Positions 20,711 to 62,324 of a DNA stretch of 64,000 nucleotides are shown here, one piece after another (the first letter of the stretch is position 1; each line of letters opens with the position of its first letter). Source of the DNA: Pseudomonas phage BRkr; the sequence record LC765218.1; one strand, given 5' to 3'. A model generated the notes under the pieces. The model was not told the DNA's origin, ran no database searches, and worked only from the letters and a program-made list of their open reading frames with translations. The position numbers were made by a program, and so were the translations under genes.

Positions 20711-20735
20711 TAAATATATTAAAAACCTATATTAC
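20711..20735 (+). promoter_or_regulatory. early-promoter-like element (AT-rich, then CCTATATTAC)
   Basis: One of ten or more copies of the ATCTATAT(T/A)AC family. Matches the TATATTAC early-promoter consensus I recall for phiKZ (from memory). Lies 36 nt upstream of the ATG at 20771. Confidence 0.5.
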
Positions 20736-20770
20736 AAATGTGAATTCAATACCACAATAGGGATCTACAA

Positions 20771-21130
20771 ATGCACCTCAATAAAGAACTTCTCAAAGAA
20801 CTGTTCACTGTTATCGAAGACAATATGCGCACCAAAGGTGAGTACTTCGATAAACAAGTCCGTATCAGTACCTTCGGTGAACTGGAGATTCGTACCTTCG
20901 CCGGATCGTTCATCTTCTACAAAGCTGGTACCTCTGAACAGTATGCCATGTTCAGCGTGGAGTTCGATGCTACTGGCAAGATCATTCGTTTCATTGCACC
21001 AGCGCTGCTGCGTGCCACTATCTACTGGGATATGGTAGAAGACGAGAACTCAGAACCAGAATACCGTAAGGTCGATATCGAAGAGATGTTGATCAACGCT
21101 GTAACCAACCATTTCAAAACCGCTAAGTAA
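20771..21130 (+). CDS. hypothetical protein (119 aa)
   Basis: First ORF after the promoter-like element. Confidence 0.5.
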   Translation: MHLNKELLKELFTVIEDNMRTKGEYFDKQVRISTFGELEIRTFAGSFIFYKAGTSEQYAMFSVEFDATGKIIRFIAPALLRATIYWDMVEDENSEPEYRKVDIEEMLINAVTNHFKTAK

Positions 21131-21141
21131 GGAACATCGAA

Positions 21142-21507
21142 ATGCGTAAACTGTTCATCGCTGTGGTATCCACTATTGCATTACAAGTCGCTGTCGCTGA
21201 TCCGTTCAATCCGGTGGAATACGATGCCCAACTCTACGCTGAAATGGTAGATAGTTCTGATCTGATCTACTGTAACAAAGGTATCTGTAATTATGTCGAT
21301 AATGGTGACTTGTTCACCGAATTTGACATGCCGCCACCTGATGGTTACACAATCGCTTTTCCTAAAGGCAAATACAGTGAACATGAAATCAACAAATATC
21401 GACCACTGTTAACTGAGTTTTATCAAACCCTGGTAGCACTGAAGACTGGTGACTGCACTGGTCCTCTGAGTGAACAGACTAAACGTACCCTTAAATGCAT
21501 ACGGTGA
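21142..21507 (+). CDS. hypothetical secreted protein (signal peptide MRKLFIAVVSTIALQVAVA)
   Basis: N-terminal hydrophobic signal-like segment. 121 aa. Confidence 0.5.
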   Translation: MRKLFIAVVSTIALQVAVADPFNPVEYDAQLYAEMVDSSDLIYCNKGICNYVDNGDLFTEFDMPPPDGYTIAFPKGKYSEHEINKYRPLLTEFYQTLVALKTGDCTGPLSEQTKRTLKCIR

Positions 21508-21510
21508 GTT

Positions 21511-21714
21511 ATGGCCATAACAATTCCCTACACCCGACTGGCTTCCTTTAAGAACCTCGACAAGAATCTACGTTGGGGTCAAGCTTTCCATAGTCACATG
21601 GAACTTCACAAAATCACCAATCCGGAAGATAAGGAGTGGTGTGATAAACTATGGAATGCTGATGATCGGACTGCCGCTGATCTTCTCGCATCTGTAGTTG
21701 ATTACAATAACTAA
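21511..21714 (+). CDS. hypothetical protein (67 aa)
   Basis: Small ORF tightly packed in the operon. Confidence 0.4.
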   Translation: MAITIPYTRLASFKNLDKNLRWGQAFHSHMELHKITNPEDKEWCDKLWNADDRTAADLLASVVDYNN

Positions 21715-21929
21715 TGATCGCTTTCGGTTTAGCTAGTCTGTTCTTTATTGCAATGATTTTAAATATCGGATATCTCTATTCGACAAAGCAATATGAACAT
21801 GAAAAGCTAGCTAGGTGTGACTCAGTTACATTGAAACGATCTAAGTGGTGGATACGCGTATTCAAAGGCGGGAGAAATACATTACTCGCTTTGTTCGTTG
21901 TAATCCTGGCAGACCACTTATTCAAGTAA
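21714..21929 (+). CDS. hypothetical membrane protein (71 aa, two hydrophobic segments)
   Basis: TAATG overlap. Hydrophobic helices FGLASLFFIAMILNIGYL and LLALFVVILA. Confidence 0.4.
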   Translation: MIAFGLASLFFIAMILNIGYLYSTKQYEHEKLARCDSVTLKRSKWWIRVFKGGRNTLLALFVVILADHLFK

Positions 21930-21933
21930 CACG

Positions 21934-21968
21934 ACATAAGCCCTCTCCTTCGGGAGAGGGCATTTATG
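21934..21968. terminator. bidirectional intrinsic terminator
   Basis: GCCCTCTCC-TTCG-GGAGAGGGC flanked by CATAAG and TTTATG, between convergent genes ending at 21929 and 21980. Confidence 0.6.
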
Positions 21969-21979
21969 TTTTTTTTTCT

Positions 21980-23224
21980 TTACCTGGAATAATAATTCCT
22001 GGTCATAGCTCGAAGAATAATGTAAAGCATGATCCCAGTACGGGTAGCTGCAATAACAGCTGGGTTCTTAATCTTCGTTGCTTCTTTCACCATTGCTTCA
22101 CCGGTGTCCCGCATAAAGAGTACACGTGGATCTTCTGAACGCGAAGCCATCAGCTTAGCACGGATCTTCACGATAATACCGTTTAGGTCGGTATTACGCT
22201 GTACAGAGGTTTTAATCGACTGCATGTAGTCAAACGCGTAGAGCAGACATTCATCAACTAGTTTCTCTAGATGACCCATTCTCGGTTGACCATAATTTCG
22301 CGACATGTACTGTAGCGATTCCACTAGAAGCTTTGGAGGCATAGCTGCCATTGAGTTCTCAATCACACCCAACAGCTCAGGTCTAATAAAGTTCTGTTCG
22401 TTGTTAACAACACCATGCATGTAGCGAAGATAACCCGAATAACCGTTAACTTTATCTCTTAGTATTTGATCTCCATCAGTATTGACACCAATGTCAGAGG
22501 TCATAACCAATCTAGAACCAGATTGTAAAGTACGGATATAAACTTCGTAGTATTTATTGATCAATTCACGAATACGTGACTGCGTGTCAGTTACAACGCG
22601 TTTCGACATATAACCGTCTTTATCCTCGATCTTATCATGAAGATACGAGTAATAAATATTCGAAGTGTCGTTCGAAGAAATCCCCTCGGAACGTTCACGA
22701 ATTAATTTTCCCCAGCTACCAATAGCTTTAATATCAAACTTGTAGTTAAGAGCAGCAAATGTCGCTTCGGCCACTTCACGCCTAGCCGGATATTTAAATC
22801 GTCTAACCAATAGAGATGTTAGATATTTAAAATGTAGCACCATGAAAGCGCATGTAATTGCTTCTTGTTTGATATTCAACGGAATGTCATTACGTTTATT
22901 CAGTTGGATCGTAAGATAACCTGGAATATGGTTGAATGGATCAGATGCCACAATGTGTGTAGGATCGATACCTTCAGCTTTAACGAAATCGTGACGGAGT
23001 AGATCGTCATCTACACGTAGCACGTCATCAAACCAAATCTCACGGTCAGTATCATAGAAGCGAACTTCTTGAACACCTAGAAGAACTCCACCAAAAAATG
23101 CAGAGTGATCTTCATTACGGTTCATGTAACGGACGGTGTAGTCGATGATTCGTTTGCAAAGGTCTCGGTCAAACTTGACATCTTCGAAATGCTTGTCAAG
23201 AACTTGACGAATAGTGAGAGCCAT
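21980..23224 (-). CDS. hypothetical protein (414 aa)
   Basis: Complete ORF with AAAGAGG Shine-Dalgarno. A lone minus-strand gene in a plus-strand region. Confidence 0.55.
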   Translation of the reverse strand: MALTIRQVLDKHFEDVKFDRDLCKRIIDYTVRYMNRNEDHSAFFGGVLLGVQEVRFYDTDREIWFDDVLRVDDDLLRHDFVKAEGIDPTHIVASDPFNHIPGYLTIQLNKRNDIPLNIKQEAITCAFMVLHFKYLTSLLVRRFKYPARREVAEATFAALNYKFDIKAIGSWGKLIRERSEGISSNDTSNIYYSYLHDKIEDKDGYMSKRVVTDTQSRIRELINKYYEVYIRTLQSGSRLVMTSDIGVNTDGDQILRDKVNGYSGYLRYMHGVVNNEQNFIRPELLGVIENSMAAMPPKLLVESLQYMSRNYGQPRMGHLEKLVDECLLYAFDYMQSIKTSVQRNTDLNGIIVKIRAKLMASRSEDPRVLFMRDTGEAMVKEATKIKNPAVIAATRTGIMLYIILRAMTRNYYSR

Positions 23225-23260
23225 GGTTATACCTCTTTGATTAATCAGATCATTGCGCTA

Positions 23261-23284
23261 AAAAATATCTTAGATCTATATTAC
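23261..23284 (+). promoter_or_regulatory. early-promoter-like element AAAAATATCTTAGATCTATATTAC
   Basis: AGATCT-containing subclass, shared with the elements at 47836 and 57294. Confidence 0.55.
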
Positions 23285-23323
23285 ATGCAAGCTAAACATT
23301 CCGTTAAAAAGAGGTTTTGCAAT

Positions 23324-24328: not shown

Positions 24329-24337
24329 GGAGTTATC

Positions 24338-24964: not shown

Positions 24965-24967
24965 TTC

Positions 24968-25354
24968 ATGTTAGAGATTGGTGAAATTCGACATGAAGTA
25001 ATTGGTGAGTTCATAAAGGTCGAGAGGACACATGTTGTCCTCCCTGACTATCTTGAATCTCTTCTCGATTACGAGGGTAATATACGAACGTTGTTAACCA
25101 GTAAAGCTTTCGCTTGCACTAGGAAAGCCTATGGTATTTGGTTTGATGGTGATTTGCGTGGTTATGCTATTCTCTATACACCGGAGATGCATTTGGACTG
25201 TCTGTATATAGCAGAGTCAGCCCAAGGTATGGGGTATGGTGAACAGCTAGTACGATACATTCAAGCCAAGAAAGTTTTTGTACACAAAAAGAATGAAGCA
25301 GCTATAGCGCTTTATAAGAAAATTGGTTTAGTCATTGAGTTTGATGACGAATAA
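24968..25354 (+). CDS. GNAT-family N-acetyltransferase
   Basis: Acetyl-CoA motif A, LYIAESAQGMGYGEQLVRYI, then HKKNEAAIALYKKIGL. 128 aa. Confidence 0.7.
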   Translation: MLEIGEIRHEVIGEFIKVERTHVVLPDYLESLLDYEGNIRTLLTSKAFACTRKAYGIWFDGDLRGYAILYTPEMHLDCLYIAESAQGMGYGEQLVRYIQAKKVFVHKKNEAAIALYKKIGLVIEFDDE

Positions 25355-25462
25355 ATACTGAGATCCAGTATTTAATACAGGTTAGATTTCCCTGTTGTCT
25401 ATTTTGCATGAACGTTGCAAACGTTTTTTTGCATTCCGCAAAGACAACATAAAGGTGAAATC

Positions 25463-25810: not shown

Positions 25811-25817
25811 CCTGGCA

Positions 25818-25848
25818 TTGGCCTCTCCTTCGGGAGAGGCTATATGTC
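25818..25848 (+). terminator. intrinsic terminator
   Basis: GCCTCTCC-TTCG-GGAGAGGC then TATATGTCG. Confidence 0.55.
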
Positions 25849-25897
25849 GCCTTTTTCTTTTATCATGTGAACGCCAAATATAATTGAAGAGGTGCGT

Positions 25898-26659: not shown

Positions 26660-26668
26660 GGATTTAAC

Positions 26669-26974
26669 ATGGCAACACAATTTGAAGTTACCTTGGAAGA
26701 AATAAAAGCCGAACTAGGTACCCCTCTAGAAATCGTTCCAATGGTCCTACATAAGCTTTTTCAACTTCCCTATGACTTACCCTATCCAAGTAAGATTCTC
26801 TTCGAAGAACAACGTCTGGAGAGCAATAAACCACGTCTACTGATCCGTAATAAAGATAGTATCGTAATCGGTATCGCTTTAGAACCTACAGTTGACAAAG
26901 CCTCTATCTTAACTTACATTAAGAAGGCTGCTCCCACAATAATGGATCTTCGTCCATGGGTTGAACGCGAGTAA
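26669..26974 (+). CDS. hypothetical protein (101 aa)
   Basis: Complete ORF. Confidence 0.45.
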   Translation: MATQFEVTLEEIKAELGTPLEIVPMVLHKLFQLPYDLPYPSKILFEEQRLESNKPRLLIRNKDSIVIGIALEPTVDKASILTYIKKAAPTIMDLRPWVERE

Positions 26975-26979
26975 TATAA

Positions 26980-27008
26980 ACGCCTCCCTTCGGGGAGGCT
27001 TTATGTTG
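26980..27008 (+). terminator. intrinsic terminator
   Basis: GCCTCCC-TTCG-GGGAGGC then TTTATGTTG. Confidence 0.55.
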
Positions 27009-27014
27009 TATTTG

Positions 27015-27032
27015 TTTTTAAATCTATATTAC
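27015..27032 (+). promoter_or_regulatory. early-promoter-like element TTTTTAAATCTATATTAC
   Basis: Member of the ATCTATATTAC family, 35 nt upstream of the ATG at 27067. Confidence 0.5.
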
Positions 27033-27066
27033 TAAAATGATATTCAATCACTAAATAGGAGTTACG

Positions 27067-27900: not shown

Positions 27901-28160
27901 TCGCGGGGCCGGCCGCGCATAAGTAACTTGTTGTTAAAGAATAGATATCTTTAATAAAGAGTATTTTCCTTATTAAATGCTTTTTCTTTAAAAGAAATTT
28001 TATATAAATAGTAATTATATGTGGGGGGGACCCTTTGGGGGGGTCCCATATATAATTTCCTTATTCTTTAGTACGGGGTAGGGAAACAAAAACGACTATG
28101 TCGCAAAACTTGGAAGAGGGTGTCGTGGGGCTACAAAGCCCCATCCACCCAGTAGTAAAA

Positions 28161-28181
28161 ATTATTTCAAATCTATATTAC
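28161..28181 (+). promoter_or_regulatory. early-promoter-like element ATTATTTCAAATCTATATTAC
   Basis: TTTCAAATCTATAT subclass, shared with the elements at 35931 and 45951. Confidence 0.5.
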
Positions 28182-28220
28182 TTAGTTGAATATTAACTCG
28201 TAAAACTGGAAAAACCGAAA

Positions 28221-30441: not shown

Positions 30442-30467
30442 TGGGGAGCTTCGGCTCCCCTTTTATT
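30442..30467 (+). terminator. intrinsic terminator
   Basis: GGGGAGC-TTCG-GCTCCCC then TTTTATT, directly after phuZ. Confidence 0.55.
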
Positions 30468-31144: not shown

Positions 31145-31220
31145 TAACCGTCCAATCTTTTGTATCAATTAACAACAGTAAGGAATCAATAATGAAACCT
31201 GATTAAACCTCTAAGGAGGA

Positions 31221-33461: not shown

Positions 33462-33467
33462 ATACAG

Positions 33468-33500
33468 GCCCACCCTTCGGGGTGGGTTTATTTTGTTTTT
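33468..33500 (+). terminator. intrinsic terminator
   Basis: CCCACCC-TTCG-GGGTGGG then TTTATTTTGTTTTTCTTTTTT. Confidence 0.55.
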
Positions 33501-33510
33501 CTTTTTTACA

Positions 33511-33537
33511 TTCAAACCAATTTAAAGGCTATATTAC
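33511..33537 (+). promoter_or_regulatory. early-promoter-like element ...AAAGGCTATATTAC
   Basis: TATATTAC core 34 nt upstream of the ATG at 33571. Confidence 0.45.
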
Positions 33538-33570
33538 AAACGTGATAATAAACCTTAGAGGTATCACGAC

Positions 33571-34040: not shown

Positions 34041-34092
34041 CATAAAGCCCCTACCTTCGGGTAGGGGCTATGCTTATTTTTTTTTTATTTTA
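34041..34092. terminator. bidirectional intrinsic terminator
   Basis: GCCCCTACC-TTCG-GGTAGGGGC, flanked by CATAAAG and TATGCTTATTTTTTTTTTTATTTT. The same 22-nt stem-loop recurs at 44821. Confidence 0.6.
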
Positions 34093-35002
34093 GATAATAC
34101 ATGGCATTACTAGCAGCGTTGACTGAACTGTTACCAGAACCACCGAAACAATACAACCGTTTTCCATCGGATACAATACTCGAATTGAATACGATATTAG
34201 CTATATTCTTGAACAATACCCATTTATTTTCATCGGGTAAATATTCGTAGATATTTTTATTCGCGTTGTTATTGATTAAGGGTGCACCAGGCATCAGGAA
34301 TATCCGACCATCCATGGTGAAGCCACTACCAACCCAAGTAGTAATTGGGAAATTACTTAGCTGTACCCACGTATTTGTGGATAAAGTATATTCCCAGAAA
34401 TCATTACGATTGCTAACGCCACCGATTAAATAGAATTTACCATTTAGATAAACACTAGCAGACGATGTTCTAGCTGGCGGACGAAGTGTTGGTTGGGTTA
34501 CAGTTTCCCAAGTGTCGGTAGCGATATTATATTTCATTAACACGTCGTTTGACGGCGTGCCACCGTAAGTATAAATAAAGCCCGACTCATAGAACATATG
34601 GAAATCGTAACGAGCCACAGGTGGGGATTTCAAAACCAGTTTTTCTTTTGTTAATGGATCAATCCTAACAAAAGTGCTATTAACAGCATTACCTGGAAAT
34701 GTAGCGCCGCCGAGGTGGTACAGATATGTTCCATCGTTAACGATACCAGAGAAATATACAGACGACGGAACAGTACTGAAGTTTTGATCATACACACCAG
34801 TGGCAAGATCATACGTCATTAACGTCGAAGTGGATACACCATTTGTTCCACCTTGCGTGCCGCCACCAGCAATATATACTTTACCATTGAGTAGGGTTGC
34901 AGATGCACCTACCCTAGTAACAGGCATGTTAGGACCCTGTACAGGGATTCCTTGCCATCCAAGATTAGTTCTGACTAATGTAGCGAGTAAAGACTCGAAC
35001 AT
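34085..35002 (-). CDS. Kelch-repeat / beta-propeller protein
   Basis: Repeated blades carrying Y-x-x-GG motifs, for example VYIAGGGTQGG, LYHLGGATFPG, IYTYGGTPS, FYLIGGVSN and LYCFGGSGN. Start is taken at the ATG that corresponds to the paralogue at 3518. The track ORF extends to 35071 and would overlap the upstream gene. Confidence 0.55.
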   Translation of the reverse strand: MFESLLATLVRTNLGWQGIPVQGPNMPVTRVGASATLLNGKVYIAGGGTQGGTNGVSTSTLMTYDLATGVYDQNFSTVPSSVYFSGIVNDGTYLYHLGGATFPGNAVNSTFVRIDPLTKEKLVLKSPPVARYDFHMFYESGFIYTYGGTPSNDVLMKYNIATDTWETVTQPTLRPPARTSSASVYLNGKFYLIGGVSNRNDFWEYTLSTNTWVQLSNFPITTWVGSGFTMDGRIFLMPGAPLINNNANKNIYEYLPDENKWVLFKNIANIVFNSSIVSDGKRLYCFGGSGNSSVNAASNAMYYLK

Positions 35003-35018
35003 ATAAACACCTACGCCC

Positions 35019-35831
35019 TTACGGCGCCGCCATGATAGTACGAATATGGTGTCGGTTACCTTCAGGGTCATTGAAGTTCCGGGATACCTTCCGCCACTTC
35101 TTCAGTTGCTCATCATAGAGATCGTTCGCTTCAGACCATTCGTAAACTTTGTCACGGAATACACCAAGCTCTTGACCGCCAGATAACTGAGCTTCACCCA
35201 TATTGATGTAAAGTTCATTATAACAGTAGGCTTTAACAGCATATTCAACTAGTTTAGAGAATACAGGGATAGCCTGAGGACGAATATTAAGTAACTCGTC
35301 ATCATTACCCAAGCGACACGATAAATACGCGGCATGTGAAGGCAAGTAAATAAATCTAACCATTACAGTGTTATGGTTAATCAAGTTAATGTATGCAGTC
35401 TGTGCAACAGGTAGTCTTCGCGCAGAGTCTAATACTTTACGTGATTCAGCACCAATAGTCGATTCATTATAGTGCATTGCATATCCAGAGTTCTGATAAC
35501 CTAGGATACCGAAGTGAATACTAAATACCTGGACGATGGGACGCTGTTGGGTGTATTCATCCGGGATATAGTAAATAACAGTGTACGGATCGACATATTC
35601 AGACTTAACAGGAAAGTCCAGTGGAATATAAGTTTTAGTTCCACCGATCAAGTTCATGTCTGCAAAGACACGTGGTTCTAATACCGCCTCTCGAATTCTA
35701 GTTTCAAGAGAAATGACTTCACCGCAAATAGCTGCATTAGATGCAGCTTCTTGTCCAATGAAAACAGACTCTAGAATCTGACGGGGAATTCGGAAAGGTA
35801 AATCTCGAAGTGCATATTGAATAGCATTCAT
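35019..35831 (-). CDS. hypothetical protein (270 aa)
   Basis: Complete ORF co-oriented with the Kelch-like gene. Confidence 0.5.
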
Positions 35832-35930
35832 GTTTAAACGCCCCTAGGAAGCTCACCAGCGAACGAACACCCATGGAGATAATACCCAGGTGGGGTATCA
35901 TATACAACGGGGGTTCTGTGACGATTTTAA

Positions 35931-35951
35931 AAGATTTCAAATCTATATCAT
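35931..35951 (+). promoter_or_regulatory. early-promoter-like element AAGATTTCAAATCTATATCAT
   Basis: TTTCAAATCTATAT subclass. Confidence 0.45.
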
Positions 35952-35980
35952 AGCTCTGAGTGATTTCCGGAATACTAACT

Positions 35981-44352: not shown

Positions 44353-44378
44353 CGCCCAGCTTAAGCTGGGCTTTATGT
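44353..44378 (+). terminator. intrinsic terminator
   Basis: CCCAGC-TTAA-GCTGGG then CTTTATGTCG. Confidence 0.5.
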
Positions 44379-44812: not shown

Positions 44813-44860
44813 GACATAAAGCCCCTACCTTCGGGTAGGGGCTGTTTATTATGTTTTTTT
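44813..44860. terminator. bidirectional intrinsic terminator (same stem as at 34047)
   Basis: GCCCCTACC-TTCG-GGTAGGGGC flanked by CATAAAG and TGTTTATTATGTTTTTTT, between convergent ends at 44811 and 44849. Confidence 0.6.
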
Positions 44861-45934: not shown

Positions 45935-45950
45935 GGTTTTCGTCCATTAG

Positions 45951-45973
45951 AAATTATTTCAAATCTATATCAT
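45951..45973 (+). promoter_or_regulatory. early-promoter-like element AAATTATTTCAAATCTATATCAT
   Basis: TTTCAAATCTATAT subclass, 43 nt upstream of the ATG at 46016. Confidence 0.45.
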
Positions 45974-46015
45974 AGTTTTGATATATTCACCCTAATCAAA
46001 GAAAAGGAAATTGTA

Positions 46016-47641
46016 ATGATAAATAAAGCATTGAACAGCACGTCTTCTTATAAACTTGCTGTTGTCAATAATTCGCTCAGACGTTTCTTCGAGGAAACGA
46101 TGGGTCGAATTAACACGGATCTTTTCGTGATACATAACCCGAAATTTGTTAAAGCCATGTTCGATGAGATTTTGAAAACCCTTCCGGATTTTCATGCACC
46201 CACGGACGTTATTAATAATCACATCCGTATTCAGTTCCTTAATACTGTTTCTGATCGCGTTAAAGCGATGTCTGAAAATTTCAGTATATTTAAAGAAACA
46301 TATCAGAAAAGTAATACTGGTATTCTTTTTGAAGACTGGTATTACGAGAGACAACGCGAAGGTATCATGTTGGCTCAGTCCGGTAAATACGACGAACTTA
46401 TTGACAAAGTGGAGAATAGTGAGATGCAATCCAAAGACAAGAATATTGACATTAATCTTGCCGAAGCCATTACTGACTTCATCGCCAGCGTTATACCTAC
46501 AGAACATCGCATGGATTTCATTGGGTACAACGGCAAGTTCGTTAAAGAACTGGCAGTTAAAGTAGCTATTGATCTGGATATTCGAAACCTGCCTTCGGAC
46601 AAGATCCCAACTGTTGGGGAAGTACTGAACTTCCTTAATTCCAATTATAGCAAAGCTCTCGATGAACGAGCTATCGTTTATGGGAAATATATTAACTTCT
46701 ATAAACGTTGCTGTGAAGCCGGCCAGATGAATGGGATGCTGTTTGAAGATTGGTTGATCTCTACTGGTCGAATGGAGAAAAAGGAAATCAAACACGATAA
46801 CCCGTACATCGTTGGTCAGTATACTTCGAAAGGTCCGATTAGTTACGCGCCCTCCCAGAAAACGAACCAACTCGGTGATGATTTCATTGCTGAAACTCGC
46901 CTTCGTTCCGTGCCTTCTATTTTCCGTGGTGGTAATCGGATCAATACTGGGTTCGAACATGAAACAGTGAAAAGTTCGTCATACCTGCAAAACCCAGGTC
47001 TCACTGATCTCTACTATGCAGAGAGTGATAATAACGATAATGACAAACATGTAGAAGAGAATACGCATACACTTGATCGGATCTCTACTGCTTTCACGAG
47101 TGGTAAACTTTCCCCAGAGGAAGAAGCGCGTGCTGCTATCCATCGTGAATTTTCTGGTCCTTCTATTGCACAACTTCTTGTTGAAGAGGCTCAGCGTATT
47201 AGTGAAACCGCAAATAAAATTAATAAGGAAGGAGGCAATGTAAAATCGATGAAGATTGCGGCACTTTCGGCAGATAGTATTCGCCGGGGTGAGTATTTCC
47301 GTTCTCCGCTGACTATTGTTTTCTCTTCTATCAAAGATAAGAAGGAACGAGACTGGGTATTCTCTATCGTCAAGGCGCATGTTCGGGATTGTGTTAAAAA
47401 CAACACCATCGATCCAGTGACGGCCATTCAAGGTCTTCGCAATTTGCATTCTTCCTTTATTGAAGATGACAATCGTTTTGATGACACGATGCTCACTCAC
47501 ATGAAAGAGTATTCTTCGGCGATTGCGCAATACGCTGATCAACTCAGTAAAGTTGTGAACATTAAGAGTGCGAAGGAAATCTACAGTAAGTTGAAAGACC
47601 ACTTGGATGATCTTGAAGACCTCTTGTCTGACGAGAAATAA
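46016..47641 (+). CDS. hypothetical protein (541 aa)
   Basis: Complete ORF upstream of chimallin. Confidence 0.55.
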   Translation: MINKALNSTSSYKLAVVNNSLRRFFEETMGRINTDLFVIHNPKFVKAMFDEILKTLPDFHAPTDVINNHIRIQFLNTVSDRVKAMSENFSIFKETYQKSNTGILFEDWYYERQREGIMLAQSGKYDELIDKVENSEMQSKDKNIDINLAEAITDFIASVIPTEHRMDFIGYNGKFVKELAVKVAIDLDIRNLPSDKIPTVGEVLNFLNSNYSKALDERAIVYGKYINFYKRCCEAGQMNGMLFEDWLISTGRMEKKEIKHDNPYIVGQYTSKGPISYAPSQKTNQLGDDFIAETRLRSVPSIFRGGNRINTGFEHETVKSSSYLQNPGLTDLYYAESDNNDNDKHVEENTHTLDRISTAFTSGKLSPEEEARAAIHREFSGPSIAQLLVEEAQRISETANKINKEGGNVKSMKIAALSADSIRRGEYFRSPLTIVFSSIKDKKERDWVFSIVKAHVRDCVKNNTIDPVTAIQGLRNLHSSFIEDDNRFDDTMLTHMKEYSSAIAQYADQLSKVVNIKSAKEIYSKLKDHLDDLEDLLSDEK

Positions 47642-47835
47642 GAAAAGAAATACTGGGGCTAGTTATTTAATACAGGAAATGACCGTGAGGTCCTGACCTG
47701 CTATTTGAGCTATGCCCCAGATCACTGCATACTGAAGTTTGAATCTTAAGGAAACAAATATGTAATACAGTATGTGAAGACTGAATGTCCTCAAATGACC
47801 TTGCTTTTATAGCGGGTCCTCCGGTCTATATTGTA

Positions 47836-47862
47836 TTAAAAAAAATCTGAGATCTATATAAC
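47836..47862 (+). promoter_or_regulatory. early-promoter-like element AAAAAAAATCTGAGATCTATATAAC upstream of chimallin
   Basis: AGATCT subclass. The shell gene is expected to be expressed immediately on infection. Confidence 0.55.
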
Positions 47863-47931
47863 AGTTTTGAATCCAATACACTGTTGGATCTCATTCTTGA
47901 TCAAGAAACGTTACAAACATAGGAACAAATC

Positions 47932-50189: not shown

Positions 50190-51656
50190 ATGGGTCTATA
50201 TGCTCAGGTTGTCAATCATGACGAGATGCTCGCTAACCAAAGAGGTAAAGTAGTATTCGCTAATGACTTTAATACCAGCAATGCTGAACAAAAGGAGGAA
50301 TTCCAACGTTATCTGTTCTCCCATTATCAGGATGCAGATGCGATCGAGAACTCAGCTTCGTGTGACTGTGAGCATATCACAGAAGCATACAAGCTTGGGG
50401 TAATCTGCGATAACTGCGGTACACCAGTAGTAAGCACGAGCAACCGACCCATCGTTCCATCGATGTGGATTCGGGCACCGGAAGGGGTGGATCGTCTGGT
50501 GAGTCCCGAGTTGTGGATTATGCTTTCAGGTTATATGTCGATGAAAGAATTCGACTTCCTGGAGTATCTGACCAACACCCAGTATCAGTACGATTACGAT
50601 ACGATCAGTTCGAAGGAAACAAAACGGAAACTTGACAAGTTGCTGGCTCGCCAGTTCCCGCGTGGACTGAACAACTTCGTTCAGAACTTCGATACGATCT
50701 TCCAGTTCTTGCTCGATAGCAGTATCATCAATACCAACAAAGGTGAGATGGCTGCATTCGTTAACCAGAATAAAGAACATCTGTTCCCGAAGAACATTCC
50801 GATCCCAACTAAACTCTGCTTCGTTGTAGAGTCTACGACCTCGGGTGTTTACATCGATAAGCCGATCGGCGCAGCAATCGATGCGGTACTGACTATTAGT
50901 AGTATCGGTAGTTCGGCAATTCCGCTGAAACCAATCACTGTACAAAACCGTGTAGCTCGTGCATTGAAGCTTCTAGCTATCTTCCACGAGAACTACGACA
51001 AACAACGAATTGCACAGAAACCCGGTTTGGTTCGTCGACATGTACTAGGTGGTCGTCTTAACCTGACTGCACGTGCAGTAATTACTTCTATCAGTGATCC
51101 GCATGATTACGATGAACTTCACATTCCGTGGGGTGTTGGTTGTCAGCTGTTGAAGTATCATCTGATCAACAAGCTCAAACGCAAATTCCGTATGACGACT
51201 CGCCAAGCGAACTCGTTCATTTACGAGAACGTTCTGAAGTACAACGAAGTCATCGATCAACTGTTCAAAGAGATCATCGCGGAATCGAAGTATAAGGGTC
51301 TTCCTTGTGTATTCCACCGCAACCCGACTCTGCAACGTGGTTCGACTCAACAGTTCTTCATCACCGTTATCAAGAATGACATTCGCGATAACTCAATCAG
51401 CATGTCGGTCCTCTGTCTTAAAGCTCCTAATGCTGATTTCGACGGCGATCAGTTGAATTTGACGTTGATGCCCGATAACTATCTGGCTGATGCAACTGAG
51501 CGAATCGCTCCGCATACTTGGGTACTAAGTCCTGATGATCCGCACGAGATCTCGGGTAACTTGGAACTACAAGGTCCGGTAGTAGAGACCATCATCAACT
51601 ATGCTCACGAGGACTATCTTCCGTCCTTGGAAGAATGGTTGGCGAAAGCAGCTTAA
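50190..51656 (+). CDS. multisubunit RNA polymerase beta-prime subunit, N-terminal fragment (phiKZ gp55-like, non-virion RNAP)
   Basis: N-terminal zinc finger CDCEHITEAYKLGVICDNCG and the absolutely conserved catalytic Mg-binding loop NADFDGDQ near residue 415. The protein ends about 70 aa later, as in split phiKZ-type beta-prime. Confidence 0.8.
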   Translation: MGLYAQVVNHDEMLANQRGKVVFANDFNTSNAEQKEEFQRYLFSHYQDADAIENSASCDCEHITEAYKLGVICDNCGTPVVSTSNRPIVPSMWIRAPEGVDRLVSPELWIMLSGYMSMKEFDFLEYLTNTQYQYDYDTISSKETKRKLDKLLARQFPRGLNNFVQNFDTIFQFLLDSSIINTNKGEMAAFVNQNKEHLFPKNIPIPTKLCFVVESTTSGVYIDKPIGAAIDAVLTISSIGSSAIPLKPITVQNRVARALKLLAIFHENYDKQRIAQKPGLVRRHVLGGRLNLTARAVITSISDPHDYDELHIPWGVGCQLLKYHLINKLKRKFRMTTRQANSFIYENVLKYNEVIDQLFKEIIAESKYKGLPCVFHRNPTLQRGSTQQFFITVIKNDIRDNSISMSVLCLKAPNADFDGDQLNLTLMPDNYLADATERIAPHTWVLSPDDPHEISGNLELQGPVVETIINYAHEDYLPSLEEWLAKAA

Positions 51657-52299: not shown

Positions 52300-52328
52300 A
52301 CGGAGTCCCTTAGGGGACTCCTTTATAA
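52300..52328 (+). terminator. intrinsic terminator
   Basis: GGAGTCCC-TTAG-GGGACTCC then TTTATAACG. Confidence 0.5.
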
Positions 52329-55568: not shown

Positions 55569-55570
55569 AT

Positions 55571-56398
55571 ATGGAACTCATTGAAAGAGATGTCGGACAG
55601 CTTCCAGTTAGTATCGGTACTTCTCTTGCCTTTGAGGGATTCTTAGGAATTCACCCGAATCAACCTAAGCATCCGATTGACGTTAAATCGGTAAAAGAGA
55701 TATGGGTCAATCTTCGAACATTGGCCCGTAATCTTAATTCAGCTGTAGCTACGGATAAAGTCCATGGCATTAATCCAGCTGATGCTGTTACAATCCTAAT
55801 GCAGGAAATACAGACAATTCCGGTTGCACTGGGGCAACATGGATCGAAAGTCAAGGTGCGTTGGTATATCGCATCTAAAGACGCGGTCAAGTGGGAATAC
55901 CCCAAGGCTATTTATAAAGAAGCCAAAACGCCAAAACAAATGGCATATGAAGTATACGAACGTTACGCGGCAATTGAACTTCTGCATCAAATGAAAGATG
56001 CAGGAATAGAAGTGATGGAGATCGATAAAGCTCCAGTAAGGACCCAAGGTACGATCGCTTTGGTTACCCATTTTCCACATGAGCTATTGTGGAAACAATA
56101 TTTCGATCGTCTTCTTTTGTTGGAATCCCACACTGGGAAAATAAAACCGTACAACTTGTGGTACACCAAGCTTAACGGCATAAAAGAGGATACGCCCATC
56201 CCATTCACTAAATTCACTCTACAAGTGTTTGGCGATAGCGTTGTTTTCGATGCACAACCAAAAGCTATTAAGGCCCAACTGAAACAGTTAGCTGCTTCGA
56301 GACGTTGGTCGCCTGTAACTACACAAGACAAAATCTATCATGACATTACAACTCATGGCAGTAAAGAACTTAAAGAATGTTACGCGCTATTACGCTGA
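55571..56398 (+). CDS. hypothetical protein (275 aa)
   Basis: Complete ORF directly after the nuclease gene. No Walker motifs, so it is not an SbcC/Rad50. Confidence 0.5.
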   Translation: MELIERDVGQLPVSIGTSLAFEGFLGIHPNQPKHPIDVKSVKEIWVNLRTLARNLNSAVATDKVHGINPADAVTILMQEIQTIPVALGQHGSKVKVRWYIASKDAVKWEYPKAIYKEAKTPKQMAYEVYERYAAIELLHQMKDAGIEVMEIDKAPVRTQGTIALVTHFPHELLWKQYFDRLLLLESHTGKIKPYNLWYTKLNGIKEDTPIPFTKFTLQVFGDSVVFDAQPKAIKAQLKQLAASRRWSPVTTQDKIYHDITTHGSKELKECYALLR

Positions 56399-56483
56399 TT
56401 AGAAAGAATACTCTTCATCGATATAGTACGTAGAAACACTTTCGCGAAGTGTAAAAAATTAATCCAATTGGAGCTAACACATC

Positions 56484-57230
56484 ATGTCTCAACAATCCCA
56501 AGGCCCTGCCCTCTCTCCGTTCTCTGTAATGTCCACTTGGCTACATGCTGATCCGGTAGAAGGTTCTCAGAAACGTCCTAACCTGCGTTTCGGTGTCTTT
56601 GGTAACGTACCTCGCCTGACCGTACGTACTAACGTTCAAGGTGATCTGAATAACGGTAAGATTGAATTCAAAACTGACCTGGCTACTTTTGCAGCTGCAA
56701 TGAAGTATGCACGGGATCTTGTCGATGGTAAAGATGTTCCTCAAGAACGTAAGTTTGTTCACCAAGATGACTTTGTTGGCGGTAAAAAGATCGATAAGAT
56801 CATTCCGATCACCACACTGGTAATCGGCCGCGAACAGAACTCTGGTCGTATTTACATTGCTCTTATCTCTTCTCAGCAACAGCGCCCGCGTATTCGGTTC
56901 TTCTTCGGTCCGTCGAAATATCACACCATCCTGAATGGTGATGGTTCCCCCATCTCTCCGAAAGAGATGTCCGAAGCTTACGCTACCGGTTTCCTGGAAC
57001 CGGCCACTGCAATCATTTACCAGATGATGGTAAGCAGTTTTGACCAGAACGCTAAGAACGTAGCCAACCCAGCTAACTTTGGTAACGGTGGCGGCGGTGG
57101 TCAACGTCAAGGTGGCTATAATGGCGGCAACCGTGGTGGTAATAGCGGTGGTGCTCCTCAAGGTTACAATCGTCCGTCCTCCGGTGGTTTCCAGGACAAT
57201 GGCTTTGACGATTCCATTCCTGACTTCTAA
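56484..57230 (+). CDS. putative single-stranded-DNA-binding protein (SSB-like Gly-rich linker and acidic C-terminal tip)
   Basis: C-terminus NFGNGGGGGQRQGGYNGGNRGGNSGGAPQGYNRPSSGGFQDNGFDDSIPDF mirrors the bacterial SSB disordered linker plus DDDIPF tip. The N-terminal domain is not a canonical OB fold by eye. Strongly optimised codons. Confidence 0.45.
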   Translation: MSQQSQGPALSPFSVMSTWLHADPVEGSQKRPNLRFGVFGNVPRLTVRTNVQGDLNNGKIEFKTDLATFAAAMKYARDLVDGKDVPQERKFVHQDDFVGGKKIDKIIPITTLVIGREQNSGRIYIALISSQQQRPRIRFFFGPSKYHTILNGDGSPISPKEMSEAYATGFLEPATAIIYQMMVSSFDQNAKNVANPANFGNGGGGGQRQGGYNGGNRGGNSGGAPQGYNRPSSGGFQDNGFDDSIPDF

Positions 57231-57240
57231 ATAAATCTAC

Positions 57241-57276
57241 AGCATCTCTTTGGTAAACACCGAGAGATGCTGTATG
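57241..57276 (+). terminator. terminator-like hairpin
   Basis: AGCATCTCT, a 13-nt loop, then AGAGATGCT, followed by GTATG. Confidence 0.4.
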
Positions 57277-57293
57277 CCCTCTATTTCCTGACA

Positions 57294-57320
57294 TTAAAAA
57301 ATATCTCAGATCTATATTAC
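57294..57320 (+). promoter_or_regulatory. early-promoter-like element AAAAAATATCTCAGATCTATATTAC
   Basis: AGATCT subclass, 33 nt upstream of the ATG at 57353. Confidence 0.55.
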
Positions 57321-57352
57321 AACTGTGCATCACCAGAACTAAAGAGGTATAA

Positions 57353-58930
57353 ATGCGCATCGACGTTACTGGGGTACAAGGCAACGGCTTTGTGGAAGTA
57401 ACCACTAGCCATAAAGGAAACGAAATCAAGTGGAGTACAAGGGCTTATAGCAAAGTAAAACTCAATGATCCAACTCGTGTTTTCAAGGAATTTAATGATT
57501 ACCTAGAAAGCTGCGATGAGGCTGATCAAGATCGTATCTGGAACAGCTATGTCAAAATCAACGATCTGTTCAAGATGGACTTCGAACCGGCGCACATCTC
57601 CAGTACGCTGATCCATTACATCCATGAACTGTACTCAGCTCTGCCAATGAACAAACTCCGTCGTTGGCTGTTGACTATTGGTAATCTGCATATTCCACCA
57701 GAGATCCAGAAAACGATCACTGATGAATCGCGCTACACCAAGCGTGAGCAGACTTATCTTCAACATGACTACATCAACCTCGCTACTGTGGCACTTGGTC
57801 TTCGACCGATGGTTCCGATTTGGGGAGAATACATTGATTCGGGTACGGATCAAGAACTCCACAAAGAAAACGAAGTTGTTGGTTTGATTAGCCGTTGTGA
57901 AATTGCTAACTGGCCGCTACTTGAAAAAGATGAAGTGGGTGAAGATGTAGATACTGCATTTGACAAACTGGAAGGGTACGTCAAATTCTGCGTTGAAGAT
58001 GAACCGACTACTTTGGGTAGCCTTTGGCGTGGTATGAGTTCAGTTGAAATTCCAGTACATCTTCGTTCGAAGGTTCTGGTTCGCCGACTGACAATCGTTC
58101 CTCTGAACGATCCAATGTCCCACTCTATCGTAGCTAACACGTTCCGTTACGTACGTAGCAATCTCAATCCTGCCGAGCGTAGTCCAACTGATCGCGTTAA
58201 TGAAAAGCGTCCAGAAGGCGGCGGTGGTGACGACGAAGATAAAACTTCGTTTATTGAGGCACACAAGACGAAAGGTCGAGTTAGCCCAGGTGACATTGAG
58301 GCATACAACATCGATGCGATGGATTATGAGCTACTGGCACAAACGGTAGATCCTACTATCGACATGGAGAAACTGAGAAAATGTATTAGTTGCGTGAGTC
58401 AGGTCGCGAACTTTGAGATCCGTCCTCACCAAGTACTACTGGCACAATGGGTAATGGCAAAAGCTTTCCCGGCGCGTGCTTTCTATCATATCTCCAAACT
58501 GCCAGTCAATACACTGTTGGCAACTACCCAGGCTCTACTGTGGCATTGGGGTTACCTTGATGTAGCTGTGTTCCTACAAGTCGAACCTGTTTATCACGGT
58601 GAACATGGATCGACTAATCAGCTTAGTAATACCCGAAGTGGTTCGAGAATTGCTCAGAAGTATAAGGCACAGCTCGATGAACTCTATCCGCATATGAAAC
58701 TCGCTAAGGTCCCCCAATCGGGAGAGATTCCTAAGCCAGATAACATGGCGGGTATTGCAGTGAATAACTGTAACCAGTCCATCCGCTCCTCTACTTGGAT
58801 CTATCATGGTCCACCTGAGCTGTTCAAGCTTTCTGGACAGATTGCTCAGAACAACATTCTGATTCCACCTCCAAATATCAAGCACACGATCACCGAAGTG
58901 GTTCTACACCTCGCTCAGATCAACCAGTAA
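57353..58930 (+). CDS. hypothetical protein (525 aa)
   Basis: Complete ORF with optimised codons. By position it could correspond to the accessory non-virion RNAP subunit gene of phiKZ. That is only a guess from synteny. Confidence 0.55.
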   Translation: MRIDVTGVQGNGFVEVTTSHKGNEIKWSTRAYSKVKLNDPTRVFKEFNDYLESCDEADQDRIWNSYVKINDLFKMDFEPAHISSTLIHYIHELYSALPMNKLRRWLLTIGNLHIPPEIQKTITDESRYTKREQTYLQHDYINLATVALGLRPMVPIWGEYIDSGTDQELHKENEVVGLISRCEIANWPLLEKDEVGEDVDTAFDKLEGYVKFCVEDEPTTLGSLWRGMSSVEIPVHLRSKVLVRRLTIVPLNDPMSHSIVANTFRYVRSNLNPAERSPTDRVNEKRPEGGGGDDEDKTSFIEAHKTKGRVSPGDIEAYNIDAMDYELLAQTVDPTIDMEKLRKCISCVSQVANFEIRPHQVLLAQWVMAKAFPARAFYHISKLPVNTLLATTQALLWHWGYLDVAVFLQVEPVYHGEHGSTNQLSNTRSGSRIAQKYKAQLDELYPHMKLAKVPQSGEIPKPDNMAGIAVNNCNQSIRSSTWIYHGPPELFKLSGQIAQNNILIPPPNIKHTITEVVLHLAQINQ

Positions 58931-58949
58931 AATTCAAGAGGTAAATTAC

Positions 58950-60584: not shown

Positions 60585-61878
60585 GTCTGTACTCCCCTCG
60601 TTCGCCTGCGAGTTCGATGAAGAAGGTTATATCAGCCTCCGCAATCCGGTAGGTACTGCTTCTCCTTCGACCGTAGACGGTAAACGTCTTGTAATCCCAA
60701 CCGATAAGTTCCTTCGCAAGGGATTCGGTGAAGACTTCCAGCCGTTCCACCCGCTGAGTGAAGCATTGAGTCGCCGGGGTACTTCCCCGGTGATTCAGTA
60801 TCTGCAACGCGCAGCAAAAGCACACATTAGTTTCGTCGTCCACAAAATGGCCGAACAACTTCTGACCATCGCAGCGGACAAGTCGTCCCACAAGGACCTG
60901 CCACCGGATGCAACTGACTTCCTGAAGAAACTGGCAGATGCGGATAAAGCAACTGTCGGTCTGTTCGAGAAACTGATGCCTGCTGCTACTAAGAAGAACC
61001 GACTGGTTGCAGTTTACTTGAAGAATGGCGGTACTTTCGATGGTAAGAAAGTAAACCGTATGGCGATCATTCGCTTCCCGATCCTGGAAGATCTTCAGGC
61101 TGAAACTGATGATGTTCTTGGTATCAAGATGGCGAAGAAACAACGTAAGGTTCTCACTGCGCTGTTCAAACTGATCGTTCCGTTTGGTGACAATCCGGAA
61201 GAGTATGCCTTTGGTACTACCAGCCGTGTTGCACCTTATTACACCAGTCTTCTGACAGCGTATCACAAAGTAATCGTGATGCTCAATCAGCTGATTAACC
61301 GGTACGCGATCCCACTGCAAATCCCCGTCAATCTTATTCCTGTGTTTGATCTGGATCTGATCGACGAGTTCCCGAAGATCTATAACCTTATCCCTCCGCT
61401 GAATGGCAACCTCGGTGGTCGTGATGAGGATACTCCGGAAACTGCCGAAGCTGTACAAACCCAGCAACAAGCACCGAGCGTTACTGCTCCACAAGCCAGT
61501 ACTCCTCAGCTGACTCGTCCCGCCGCAGTTGTTAGCAAACCTGTAGAAAAAGATACTGTCTCCATGAGCGAATTCATGGCCGCACAGAATCCCCAACCGC
61601 AGATGATGCAGCAGCAAATGGGAATGATGATGCCGATGAATAACGGCATGATGATGCCAGGCAATGGCATGATGCAGATGAATGGCATGGGTGGGATGAT
61701 GCAACCTATGCAAATGGGTAACATGCAGCCCCAGGGTATCCAAGCGAACGCACCCATTCCCGCGTGGATGGGTGGCCAACAACAGGGCACGATGATGATG
61801 GGTAACGGTCAACCGGCTAACCCGTACATGCAGGCTGTGGCTGGCATGCGTCAAACCAATGGTCTTGGATTGGTGTAA
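60559..61878 (+). CDS. hypothetical protein (439 aa) with Met/Gln/Gly/Asn-rich low-complexity C-terminal tail
   Basis: AAGGAG Shine-Dalgarno. The C-terminal roughly 110 aa are almost purely M, Q, G, N and P, for example MMQQQMGMMMPMNNGMMMPGNGMMQMNGMGGMMQPMQMGNMQPQG. Confidence 0.55.
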   Translation: MSLILDSYKSVLPSFACEFDEEGYISLRNPVGTASPSTVDGKRLVIPTDKFLRKGFGEDFQPFHPLSEALSRRGTSPVIQYLQRAAKAHISFVVHKMAEQLLTIAADKSSHKDLPPDATDFLKKLADADKATVGLFEKLMPAATKKNRLVAVYLKNGGTFDGKKVNRMAIIRFPILEDLQAETDDVLGIKMAKKQRKVLTALFKLIVPFGDNPEEYAFGTTSRVAPYYTSLLTAYHKVIVMLNQLINRYAIPLQIPVNLIPVFDLDLIDEFPKIYNLIPPLNGNLGGRDEDTPETAEAVQTQQQAPSVTAPQASTPQLTRPAAVVSKPVEKDTVSMSEFMAAQNPQPQMMQQQMGMMMPMNNGMMMPGNGMMQMNGMGGMMQPMQMGNMQPQGIQANAPIPAWMGGQQQGTMMMGNGQPANPYMQAVAGMRQTNGLGLV

Positions 61879-61887
61879 GACGGCATA

Positions 61888-61911
61888 AAGCAGGGGGCCT
61901 TAGGGTCCCCT
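61888..61911. terminator. bidirectional intrinsic terminator
   Basis: GCAGGGGGCC-TTAG-GGTCCCCTGC with one G-U pair, flanked by CATAAAG, between convergent ends at 61878 and 61921. Confidence 0.5.
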
Positions 61912-61920
61912 GCTGTTGCT

Positions 61921-62283
61921 TTAAAATTTTCGACTAGTGTAGAACTGTTGTAATGCACCGATCTCGTTGTTAGATGGCTTGATCAAGATATTGTTGTACA
62001 CTTTGTCTAAAGGGTTACGGACATCTGCTGCAAACTGGTTTGGATTTTCCATGCCATTAACACGCAAATAAATCCAATGGAGTTCAGGCTCAATACCGAT
62101 CTCTGTTAAATACCCATAAAAGTTTCCTTCGTATTGCCAGTACAACTCATTCGGAATCTCTACTCTAACCGAGTTGATATTACGGAGAATGTTGATATGT
62201 GTTTCGACAATTAAACGGAAAGCTGGATCATAAAACATTGATGCTCCACCGTCACCGGTTTGTTCCATAATTGTAAATGCCAT
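61921..62283 (-). CDS. hypothetical protein (120 aa)
   Basis: Complete ORF. A lone minus-strand gene. Confidence 0.5.
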   Translation of the reverse strand: MAFTIMEQTGDGGASMFYDPAFRLIVETHINILRNINSVRVEIPNELYWQYEGNFYGYLTEIGIEPELHWIYLRVNGMENPNQFAADVRNPLDKVYNNILIKPSNNEIGALQQFYTSRKF

Positions 62284-62300
62284 AGAGGAATCCTACAAAA

Positions 62301-62324
62301 AAATAATTTTCACATCTATATAAT
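62301..62324 (+). promoter_or_regulatory. early-promoter-like element ...TTTTCACATCTATATAAT
   Basis: ATCTATAT core 33 nt upstream of the ATG at 62357. Confidence 0.45.

Follow-up and report, generated by a model that had tools for sequence, protein, structure and literature searches.

Thirty-two early promoters have been identified in phage phiKZ by differential RNA-seq, and these contain an extended -10 box that is preceded by T-rich sequence upstream of -19 (PMC8244752). The early promoter motif of phiKZ is TATATTAC (PMC7058600, Table 2), and the phiKZ chimallin gene has an early primary start (PMC8244752). The middle promoters of the same phage consist of an A-rich run and TACT centred at -22, and the late promoters carry TATG at the start only (PMC7598289, PMC8244752). 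For polymerase-encoding jumbo phages, early motifs of ~10 nt that are AT-rich and centred near -10 have been attributed to the virion polymerase (PMC7598289). The early motif of 201phi2-1 was reported as TTTRARR-BTATATTACDWHDGTG (PMC7058600), with conservation described at -10, -20, and -30 (PMC11512511; PMC7058600, Table 2). A family of ten related elements is described here for a 64,000-nt stretch of Pseudomonas phage BRkr (sequence record LC765218.1), which is called the window below. The elements are equivalent in sequence and in position to mapped phiKZ early promoters, are conserved within their genus, and are very probably early promoters of the phiKZ type. This assignment, with the virion polymerase as the reader, had been proposed in a first-pass annotation of the window, and the TATATTAC motif that was given there for phiKZ is the published one.

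In phage N4, a polymerase injected from the virion serves a limited number of early promoters that are specific to the phage. The same logic, a virion-carried polymerase combined with early promoters, appears to apply to the present phage. The two systems differ in the polymerase, which is single-subunit in N4 and multisubunit here, and in that the N4 promoters are DNA hairpins with a stem of 5-7 bp. An inverted repeat of the N4 type (5-7 bp stem, 3-nt loop) is absent from the window elements, and the sole symmetry, present in some of the sites, is 4+4 with a 1-nt spacer. The 201phi2-1 consensus TTAWTAVAA-HYWTTTRARR-BTATATTACDWHDGTG contains the same core as the present family, a TTTNAAA-like -20 box, and GTG 5 nt after the core. 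OBP, EL, and N1M2 have different cores (ATATTAT, CTACATTAT). The consensus strings for 201phi2-1, OBP, EL, and N1M2 pool all sites.

The window derives from a Pseudomonas aeruginosa jumbo phage of the genus Pawinskivirus. Its identity is 99.5-99.6% to PA1C, phiLBG22, PS119XW, and HHBS36_1, and 83-93% to HPP-Temi, a second Pawinskivirus species. The complete genome of phiLBG22 (302,555 bp) was used as the target for genome-wide scans. The arbitrary start of PA1C/phiLBG22-type records falls inside the window; window position 1 corresponds to phiLBG22 296727 and window position 10001 to phiLBG22 3211. A virion-polymerase subunit that is 70% identical to phiKZ gp80 is encoded just beyond the window, and gp55-, gp68-, gp71/73-, and gp74-like subunits of the non-virion polymerase are encoded inside or adjoining it.

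All ten 8-mers listed in the first-pass annotation were found in place. The sequence TATATTAC is exact at six of the ten sites (20728, 23277, 27025, 28174, 33530, and 57313). Variant 8-mers appear at 35944 and 45966 (TATATCAT), 47855 (TATATAAC), and 62317 (TATATAAT), with one or two changes that are confined to the last three positions. The 11-mer ATCTATATWAC, given earlier as the common motif, is exact in five of the ten sites; the others have CC or GC before TATAT or end in ...CAT or ...AAT. These five exact copies are the only ones in the window, all are on the plus strand, and 0.07 would be expected. Alignment of the ten sites provided the longer consensus aAAaa.ATtT.AaATC-TATATtAC-a..t.TGa, in which the core is the most informative block. 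The core is preceded by the conserved A/T-rich stretch aAAaa.ATtT.AaATC, and a conserved TG located 6-7 nt past the core is a feature that the earlier description did not contain. An extended palindromic form had been placed at 23261, 47836, and 57294; the first of these positions is correct and the other two copies begin at 47840 and 57297. For a second extended form the copy at 28161 is correct, the second starts at 45953, and the copy at 35944 has AAGATTTC rather than ATTATTTC.

A weight matrix of 40 nt (-24 to +15) was trained on the ten window sites. These sites score 32-46 bits, or 19-41 bits when each is left out of the training set. The highest score in 50 first-order Markov random windows is 17.5 bits. 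No weaker or minus-strand member was detected above 9.8 bits when both strands of the window were scanned, and the family therefore consists of exactly ten sites in the window, where at least ten had been claimed. The match with 9.8 bits at 28007 was rejected as a promoter of this family; it is part of a separate conserved element that is described below. Two copies of TATATTAC are found on the minus strand (25077-25084 and 26971-26978), where one had been noted and dismissed as coincidental. Both lack the extended motif.

The matrix was applied to phiKZ, for which mapped starts were taken from Table S3 of the ONT-cappable-seq preprint (10.1101/2023.10.13.562163); mapped phiKZ early promoters for comparison are those of Wicke et al. 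2021 (PMC8244752) and Putzeys et al. 2024 (PMC10914365). Within phiKZ 1-100 kb, 14 matches of 22-35 bits were obtained, all on the plus strand, and the next score is 12.5 bits. The eight ONT-cappable early starts of this region (2176, 4180, 23599, 29413, 44937, 45583, 51729, and 57998) were all matched, and none of the rows labelled middle or late in 1-100 kb was matched. In all eight cases the start is located 14 or 15 nt past the first T of the 8-mer and falls on the G of the conserved TG or on the base after it. This spacing was therefore used to predict the starts in the present phage (Table 1). A scan of the complete, unannotated Phikzvirus genome PaSz-1_45_270k gave 32 matches above 15 bits on one strand, followed by a drop to 12.6 bits, and this number equals the published count of phiKZ early promoters (PMC8244752). 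All 16 validated phiKZ early promoters are among these matches, 13 as an exact 22-mer and three as near-identical variants. The unvalidated phiKZ rows P121 and P129, which are labelled early and have no core, were not matched.

Eight of the ten window sites have an early-type counterpart in the same gene context of phiKZ (Table 1). Together with the eight matched phiKZ starts and the 32 Phikzvirus matches, these counterparts support the reading as phiKZ-type early promoters that would be served by the virion polymerase. The two phages share the TATATTAC core, A/T-rich -20 and -30 elements, TG at the start, a single-strand distribution, and a similar number of sites per genome (32 in phiKZ and 34 here). 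They also share the genes that are served, namely chimallin, gp68, gp70.1/71, gp36, gp31, gp41.3, and the gp53 position. The downstream genes are 47% (chimallin, gp54), 57% (gp68), and 65% (gp71) identical to those of phiKZ. The phages belong to different genera, and their intergenic DNA cannot be aligned apart from the motif. Leaders are slightly shorter in the present phage, with a median of ~28 nt as calculated from predicted starts, versus 31-40 nt in phiKZ.

A genome-wide search, the check suggested by the first-pass annotation, was carried out on phiLBG22 with the same matrix. It provided 34 sites that score above 18 bits, and the next score is 13.8 bits. Of these sites, 24 lie outside the window and had no part in the training of the matrix. 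The plus strand carries all 34, although 31% of the coding sequence is on the other strand. The sites are essentially all intergenic when real start codons are used; one site (100904) overlaps the last 33 nt of the upstream open reading frame. The bare TATATTAC occurs 23 times on the plus strand of phiLBG22 (21 of these in promoter sites) and twice on the minus strand, with 5-7 copies expected per strand. Its under-representation outside promoters is mild (2 + 2 copies versus ~12 expected).

Nine of the ten window sites are kept at the orthologous place in HPP-Temi. Around the tenth (20728) the two sequences have diverged, and HPP-Temi has a pair of cluster 2 promoters there (the clusters are described below). 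Across the nine aligned intergenic regions, identity to HPP-Temi is 98 of 99 positions for the core (-3 to +7) and 94% for the upstream element (-24 to -4), versus 80% for the spacer (+8 to +12) and 88% for the leaders.

All ten sites are intergenic, lie on the plus strand, and face a plus-strand gene. The distance from the first T of the 8-mer to the ATG is 37-50 nt at nine sites and 77 nt at chimallin. A distance of 30-45 nt between core and ATG, as stated in the first-pass annotation, is appropriate for nine sites when measured from the core end (29-42 nt) and is not for chimallin (69 nt). A Shine-Dalgarno sequence can be recognised at most of the genes that follow. Within 20-64 kb the coding strand switches from minus to plus four times, with one site at each switch. 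The remaining six sites follow plus-strand genes, and five of these (all but 47855) are found just past a terminator or a GC-rich hairpin. Positions 1-20000, with the tRNA, ribonucleotide reductase, terminase/structural, and sheath/tube genes, contain no matrix match above 7.3 bits, and the earlier statement that no copy precedes the structural operon, the sheath/tube genes, or the ribonucleotide reductase genes therefore stands.

The predicted promoters and terminators divide 20.7-64 kb into ~10 rightward units, in accord with the proposed partition into early units that include chimallin and a polymerase subunit. The units encode chimallin, the PhuZ operon, a DNA polymerase operon, and the gp55-, gp68-, and gp71/73-like non-virion polymerase subunits, along with numerous small genes whose function is unknown. 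The gp55-like subunit (50190-51656) lacks a promoter of its own; as in phiKZ, transcription from the chimallin promoter presumably reads through into it.

By homology with phiKZ, the start sites, the early timing, and the identity of the polymerase can be proposed for the present phage. A multisubunit, sigma-less virion RNA polymerase would enter the cell with the injected DNA and would recognise the elements without help from the host polymerase. The promoter would consist of the extended -10-like sequence TATAT(T/C/A)A(C/T), which spans approximately -15 to -8, together with A/T-rich elements near -20 and -30 and a conserved (T)G(A) where transcription starts. The predicted start, 14-15 nt past the first T of the 8-mer, would give mRNA leaders of 23-36 nt, or about 63 nt for chimallin. 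Indirect support for reading by the virion polymerase is provided by the phage-encoded gp80 homolog.

The 34 genomic sites are not uniform. The total pairwise mutual information between alignment columns is 150.4, versus 127.1 +/- 1.8 in column shuffles (13 standard deviations), and a single matrix is therefore an oversimplification. Clustering resolved two architectures. Cluster 1 (16 sites) has the form TAAAAAaTAT(C/T)TNA(G/A)ATC-TATAT, or in short AAAAAA..T(C/T)TNA(G/A)ATC-TATAT, and includes the window sites 23277, 28174, 35944, 45966, 47855, 57313, and 62317. Cluster 2 (18 sites) has the form TTacATTyAAA-N5-TTtAAA-NNC-TATATTAC-AAatGTGAtA, or in short ATTYAAA-N5-TTTAAA-NNC-TATATTAC-AAATGTGA, and includes 20728, 33530, and, marginally, 27025, which carries the ATC-TATAT junction of cluster 1. 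Two subclasses had been proposed in the first-pass annotation and are real, but the forms named there (ATCTNAGATC and ATTTCAAATC) both fall within cluster 1, and the main division was missed.

Both architectures are present in both genera. In phiKZ, cluster 1 is found at the mapped early starts P012, P017, P025, P028, P030, P034, P089, P091, and P099, and cluster 2 at P001, P002, P056, P109, P122, P125, and P135; the start spacing is the same for both. The ratio of cluster 1 to cluster 2 is 16:18 in Pawinskivirus and ~19:13 in Phikzvirus. The sequences differ in detail: cluster 1 often reads AT(C/T)TNA(G/A)ATC here and TTTNAGAT(C/T/A) in phiKZ, and the three bases before TATAT in cluster 2 are NNC here and CAG in phiKZ. 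In the regions compared, cluster 1 serves chimallin, the non-virion polymerase subunits, and the PhuZ and DNA polymerase operons, and most cluster 2 sites precede small accessory genes. The median length of the first gene is 171 amino acids for cluster 1 and 118 for cluster 2, a difference that is not convincing (P = 0.056). The cluster class agrees at seven of eight phiKZ orthologous sites; as cluster 1 dominates this region and ~5 of 8 would agree by chance, no claim is made from this number. Neither comparison yielded a functional correlate of the clusters. A functional distinction between the two architectures as early subclasses, in strength, in timing (immediate versus delayed early), or in the requirement for a co-injected factor, is a tentative and rather unlikely proposal.

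A pairing-like pattern is seen between positions -9 and -5 of the 34 sites, with C..G at 6, T..A at 18, T..G at 4, and C..A at none. Comparison of 28164-28173 with HPP-Temi (L012, 3337-3346) shows ATTTCAAATC replaced by ATCTTAGATC, a T-to-C and an A-to-G change that appear together. The pattern and the joint change could reflect coupling of the two positions or, equally, duplication of promoters or exchange between them.

Other identities for the elements were weighed against the phiKZ-type early promoter. The core resembles TATAAT, and the TATAT(T)A sequence might be the -10 box of host sigma-70 promoters from which the host polymerase transcribes the early genes. Weak 9-of-12 consensus matches do overlap two sites (33521-33549 and 45958-45987), but just these two of the ten were flagged. 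There is no -35 element: the alignment contains no conserved TTGACA-like sequence, and the conserved upstream sequence is AAAAA..TTTNAAA. Neither the conserved C at core position 8 nor the TG 6-7 nt further on is a sigma-70 feature. Sigma-70-like matches in window 20000-64000 are present at about half the level of dinucleotide-preserving shuffles (27 versus 49.4 and 18 versus 34.9), and infection by phiKZ resists rifampicin and does not depend on the host polymerase (PMC4666361, PMC13282480). An origin as host promoters is extremely improbable. Reading by the non-virion polymerase, which would make the sites middle or late promoters, is suggested by the middle promoter that phiKZ uses at the orthologous gp33 position and by the middle promoters located upstream of the early one at phiKZ chimallin (PMC8244752). 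The ten sites match neither the middle nor the late form of phiKZ, however; the matrix selects only phiKZ rows labelled early promoter, and no site is found ahead of structural genes. This assignment is very unlikely.

The upstream half of the elements (ATCTNAGAT, ATTTNAAAT, or the phased TTYAAA boxes) might instead be an operator for a phage regulator, or an N4-like hairpin, placed over a minimal core, so that the two architectures would be regulated differently. The column dependence, the -9/-5 pattern, the joint change in the HPP-Temi ortholog of 28174, and the recurrence of both architectures in phiKZ are the observations in its favour. The promoter copies are related by duplication, and possibly by exchange between them, which on its own can yield column dependence and apparent double changes, and no candidate regulator was identified. 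The palindrome is just 4+4 with a 1-nt spacer, which is too short for a hairpin. A palindrome or hairpin formed by ATCTNAGAT was rejected as a requirement: cluster 1 of phiKZ reads TTTNAGATC (T..G), the symmetry is not kept across genera, and a required structure such as a hairpin or a dimer-binding site is therefore unlikely. An operator or hairpin in the upstream half is judged improbable.

Several points weigh against the assignment as phiKZ-type early promoters. For two of the ten window sites (23277 and 28174), phiKZ lacks an early counterpart. The gp33-like gene lies behind an early-type promoter here (23277), whereas phiKZ gp33 is driven by the middle promoter P014, and the promoter class at a given gene is thus not fixed between genera. 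Site 23277 also has AG, not TG, at the predicted start. The literature found on Pawinskivirus contains no transcriptome, 5' end mapping, in vitro transcription, or promoter work. For phiKZ itself, the virion polymerase is named as the reader on grounds of timing, rifampicin resistance, and the content of the virion rather than from in vitro transcription.

The elements would extend the phiKZ early promoter class to a genus for which no earlier promoter or transcriptome literature was found. The result is a predicted transcription map for a genus of therapeutic-candidate P. aeruginosa jumbo phages, with ten starts in the window and 34 in the genome. The phiKZ early promoter code appears to carry over almost unchanged between genera with otherwise unalignable intergenic DNA, and the elements may be regarded as compact, host-independent promoter parts. 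The general understanding of these phages is unchanged and a specialist would not be surprised, but a question is now framed, namely whether function differs between the two conserved architectures. The predicted promoters and terminators are collected in Table 1.

Table 1. Predicted early promoters and intrinsic terminators of the window. Promoters are named by the first T of the 8-mer; the phiKZ column gives the position of the counterpart and its gene context.
Feature	Coordinates	Strand	Sequence or structure	Predicted start	ATG	Bits (leave-one-out)	phiKZ counterpart	Remarks
Early promoter 20728, cluster 2	20698..20743	+	TTGTATTTAAATATATTAAAAACC-TATATTAC-AAATGTGA	20742/20743	20771	41-44 (34.5)	23585, gp31; P012, ONT-mapped early start 23599	
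Early promoter 23277, cluster 1	23247..23292	+	AAAAAATATCTTAGATC-TATATTAC	23291/23292	23324	37-38 (25.2)		In divergent gap behind minus-strand gene 21980-23224; kept in HPP-Temi
Early promoter 27025	26995..27040	+	TTTTTAAATC-TATATTAC-TAAAATGA	27039/27040	27067	32-34 (19.5)	29398, gp36; P017, ONT-mapped early start 29413	Kept in HPP-Temi with two changes
Early promoter 28174, cluster 1	28144..28189	+	AAAAATTATTTCAAATC-TATATTAC	28188/28189	28221	40-42 (31.2)		Heads PhuZ tubulin operon; HPP-Temi ortholog ATAATCTTAGATC-TATATTAC; same promoter at same place in PhiPA3
Early promoter 33530, cluster 2	33500..33545	+	TTACATTCAAACCAATTTAAAGGC-TATATTAC-AAACGTGA	33544/33545	33571	37-39 (22.8)	34584, before gp41.3, nearly identical sequence; matrix match only	40-nt motif identical in HPP-Temi
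Early promoter 35944, cluster 1	35914..35959	+	AAAAGATTTCAAATC-TATATCAT	35958/35959	35981	38-40 (28.7)	35876, after gp42; matrix match only	Heads ~8.8-kb operon including DNA polymerase (40797-42947); in divergent gap behind minus-strand genes 34085-35831
Early promoter 45966, cluster 1	45936..45981	+	GAAATTATTTCAAATC-TATATCAT-AGTTTTGA	45980/45981	46016	42-45 (36.5)	44922, gp53 position, same TATATCATAGTTT core; P025, ONT-mapped early start 44937	
Chimallin early promoter 47855, cluster 1	47825..47870	+	AAAAAAAATCTGAGATC-TATATAAC-AGTTTTGA	47869/47870	47932	44-46 (38.8)	45568, chimallin gp54, 80 nt before ATG (77 in window); P028, ONT-mapped early start 45583, 65-nt leader	Predicted leader 62-63 nt
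Early promoter 57313, cluster 1	57283..57328	+	AAAAAATATCTCAGATC-TATATTAC-AACTGTGC	57327/57328	57353	46-48 (41.2)	57984, gp68; P034, ONT-mapped early start 57998	First gene is gp68 homolog, fifth subunit of non-virion polymerase
Early promoter 62317, cluster 1	62287..62332	+	AAAAAAATAATTTTCACATC-TATATAAT-CATTCTGC	62331/62332	62357	33-34 (19.1)	63063, gp70.1/71; matrix match only	Whole intergenic region 100% identical in HPP-Temi; next gene is gp71/73 homolog, beta-type non-virion polymerase subunit, running past window end
Intrinsic terminator	20673-20704	+						25 nt upstream of promoter 20728
Intrinsic terminator	21940..21961	+	GC stem, TTCG loop, tail ATTTATGTTT; 9 pairs, 7 G-C					Ends unit from 20742
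Intrinsic terminator	26982..26999	+	Tail TTTATGTTGT					Ends unit from 23291; promoter 27025 directly after
Intrinsic terminator	33466..33489	+	10 pairs, 6 G-C					Ends PhuZ-containing unit; promoter 33530 next
Intrinsic terminator	44820..44843	+						Ends DNA-polymerase unit from 35958; second terminator 44354-44371
Intrinsic terminator	61889..61914	+	11 pairs, 8 G-C					Ends gp68-like unit from 57327
Further terminator, same family	30443-30460							
Further terminator, same family	34046-34069							
Further terminator, same family	52302-52321	-						

The terminators form a family with a GC-rich stem, usually a TTCG or TTAG tetraloop, and a tail that is very often (T)TTTATGT. This tail contains TATG, the late-promoter tetranucleotide. 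Terminator-like sites are two to three times more common than in shuffled sequences (38 versus 12.8 and 30 versus 15.6). Several terminators are located 25-40 nt upstream of an early promoter and form terminator-promoter modules with it. The depletion of sigma-70-like matches noted above fits avoidance of host-polymerase signals.

The number of promoters varies with cassettes of small genes: HPP-Temi has promoters at 547 and 1322 (L017, reverse complement, and L012), versus the single promoter 20698-20743 of the window. A tandem promoter pair, 50 nt apart, is found elsewhere in phiLBG22 at 260266 and 260316. At the gp53 position the promoter is kept, yet the 541-amino acid gene behind it (46016-47641) is unrelated to gp53. 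The gp71 homolog (62357-64000, plus strand) runs uninterrupted into gp73-like sequence, with phiLBG22 matches at 55961-57124 and 57161-58039, and the gp72 insertion that separates gp71 and gp73 in phiKZ seems to be absent.

The chimallin leader (47863-47931) was compared with that of HPP-Temi in a 199-nt alignment. Identity is 100% between the promoter and the ATG, leader included, and the three mismatches are all located further upstream; neighbouring intergenic DNA is ~90% identical. The leader contains an inverted repeat (ATCCAA...TTGGAT, 47871-47889) and the palindrome TTCTTGATCAAGAA (47894-47907). Its conservation and these repeats hint at a regulatory leader.

Genes for tRNA-Pro(TGG) and tRNA-Leu(TAA) are found at window 648-815 on the minus strand, adjoining the ribonucleotide reductase region. 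An Rfam scan of the window returned these two tRNAs and nothing else.

The 320-nt gap before promoter 28174 contains a single-copy non-coding element at ~27985-28075 on the plus strand, with its core at 28023-28047. The core GGGGGGGACCCTTTGGGGGGGTCCC and ~35 flanking bases are identical or nearly so in Pawinskivirus, phiKZ, PhiPA3, Psa21, D6, and RVTF4; copies in PhiPA3, RVTF4, and Psa21 differ by 1-2 G in the first G-run. The phiKZ copy is located at 31204 in the gp37/gp38 gap. The element belongs to no Rfam family, the phiKZ start and end tables list no mapped start or end at it, and a literature search for its sequence found no match. TATG, the phiKZ late-promoter consensus, lies directly 5' of the element, and a U-rich tail lies 3'. 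The G-runs fit the quadruplex motif G3N1G3N7G3N1G3, and the flanks fold into a long hairpin in which two pairs are compensatory and one G.U is invariant. The element may represent a small RNA or a DNA-level signal, and may exceed the promoter family in interest. It is matched in 57 phage records, at one place in each.

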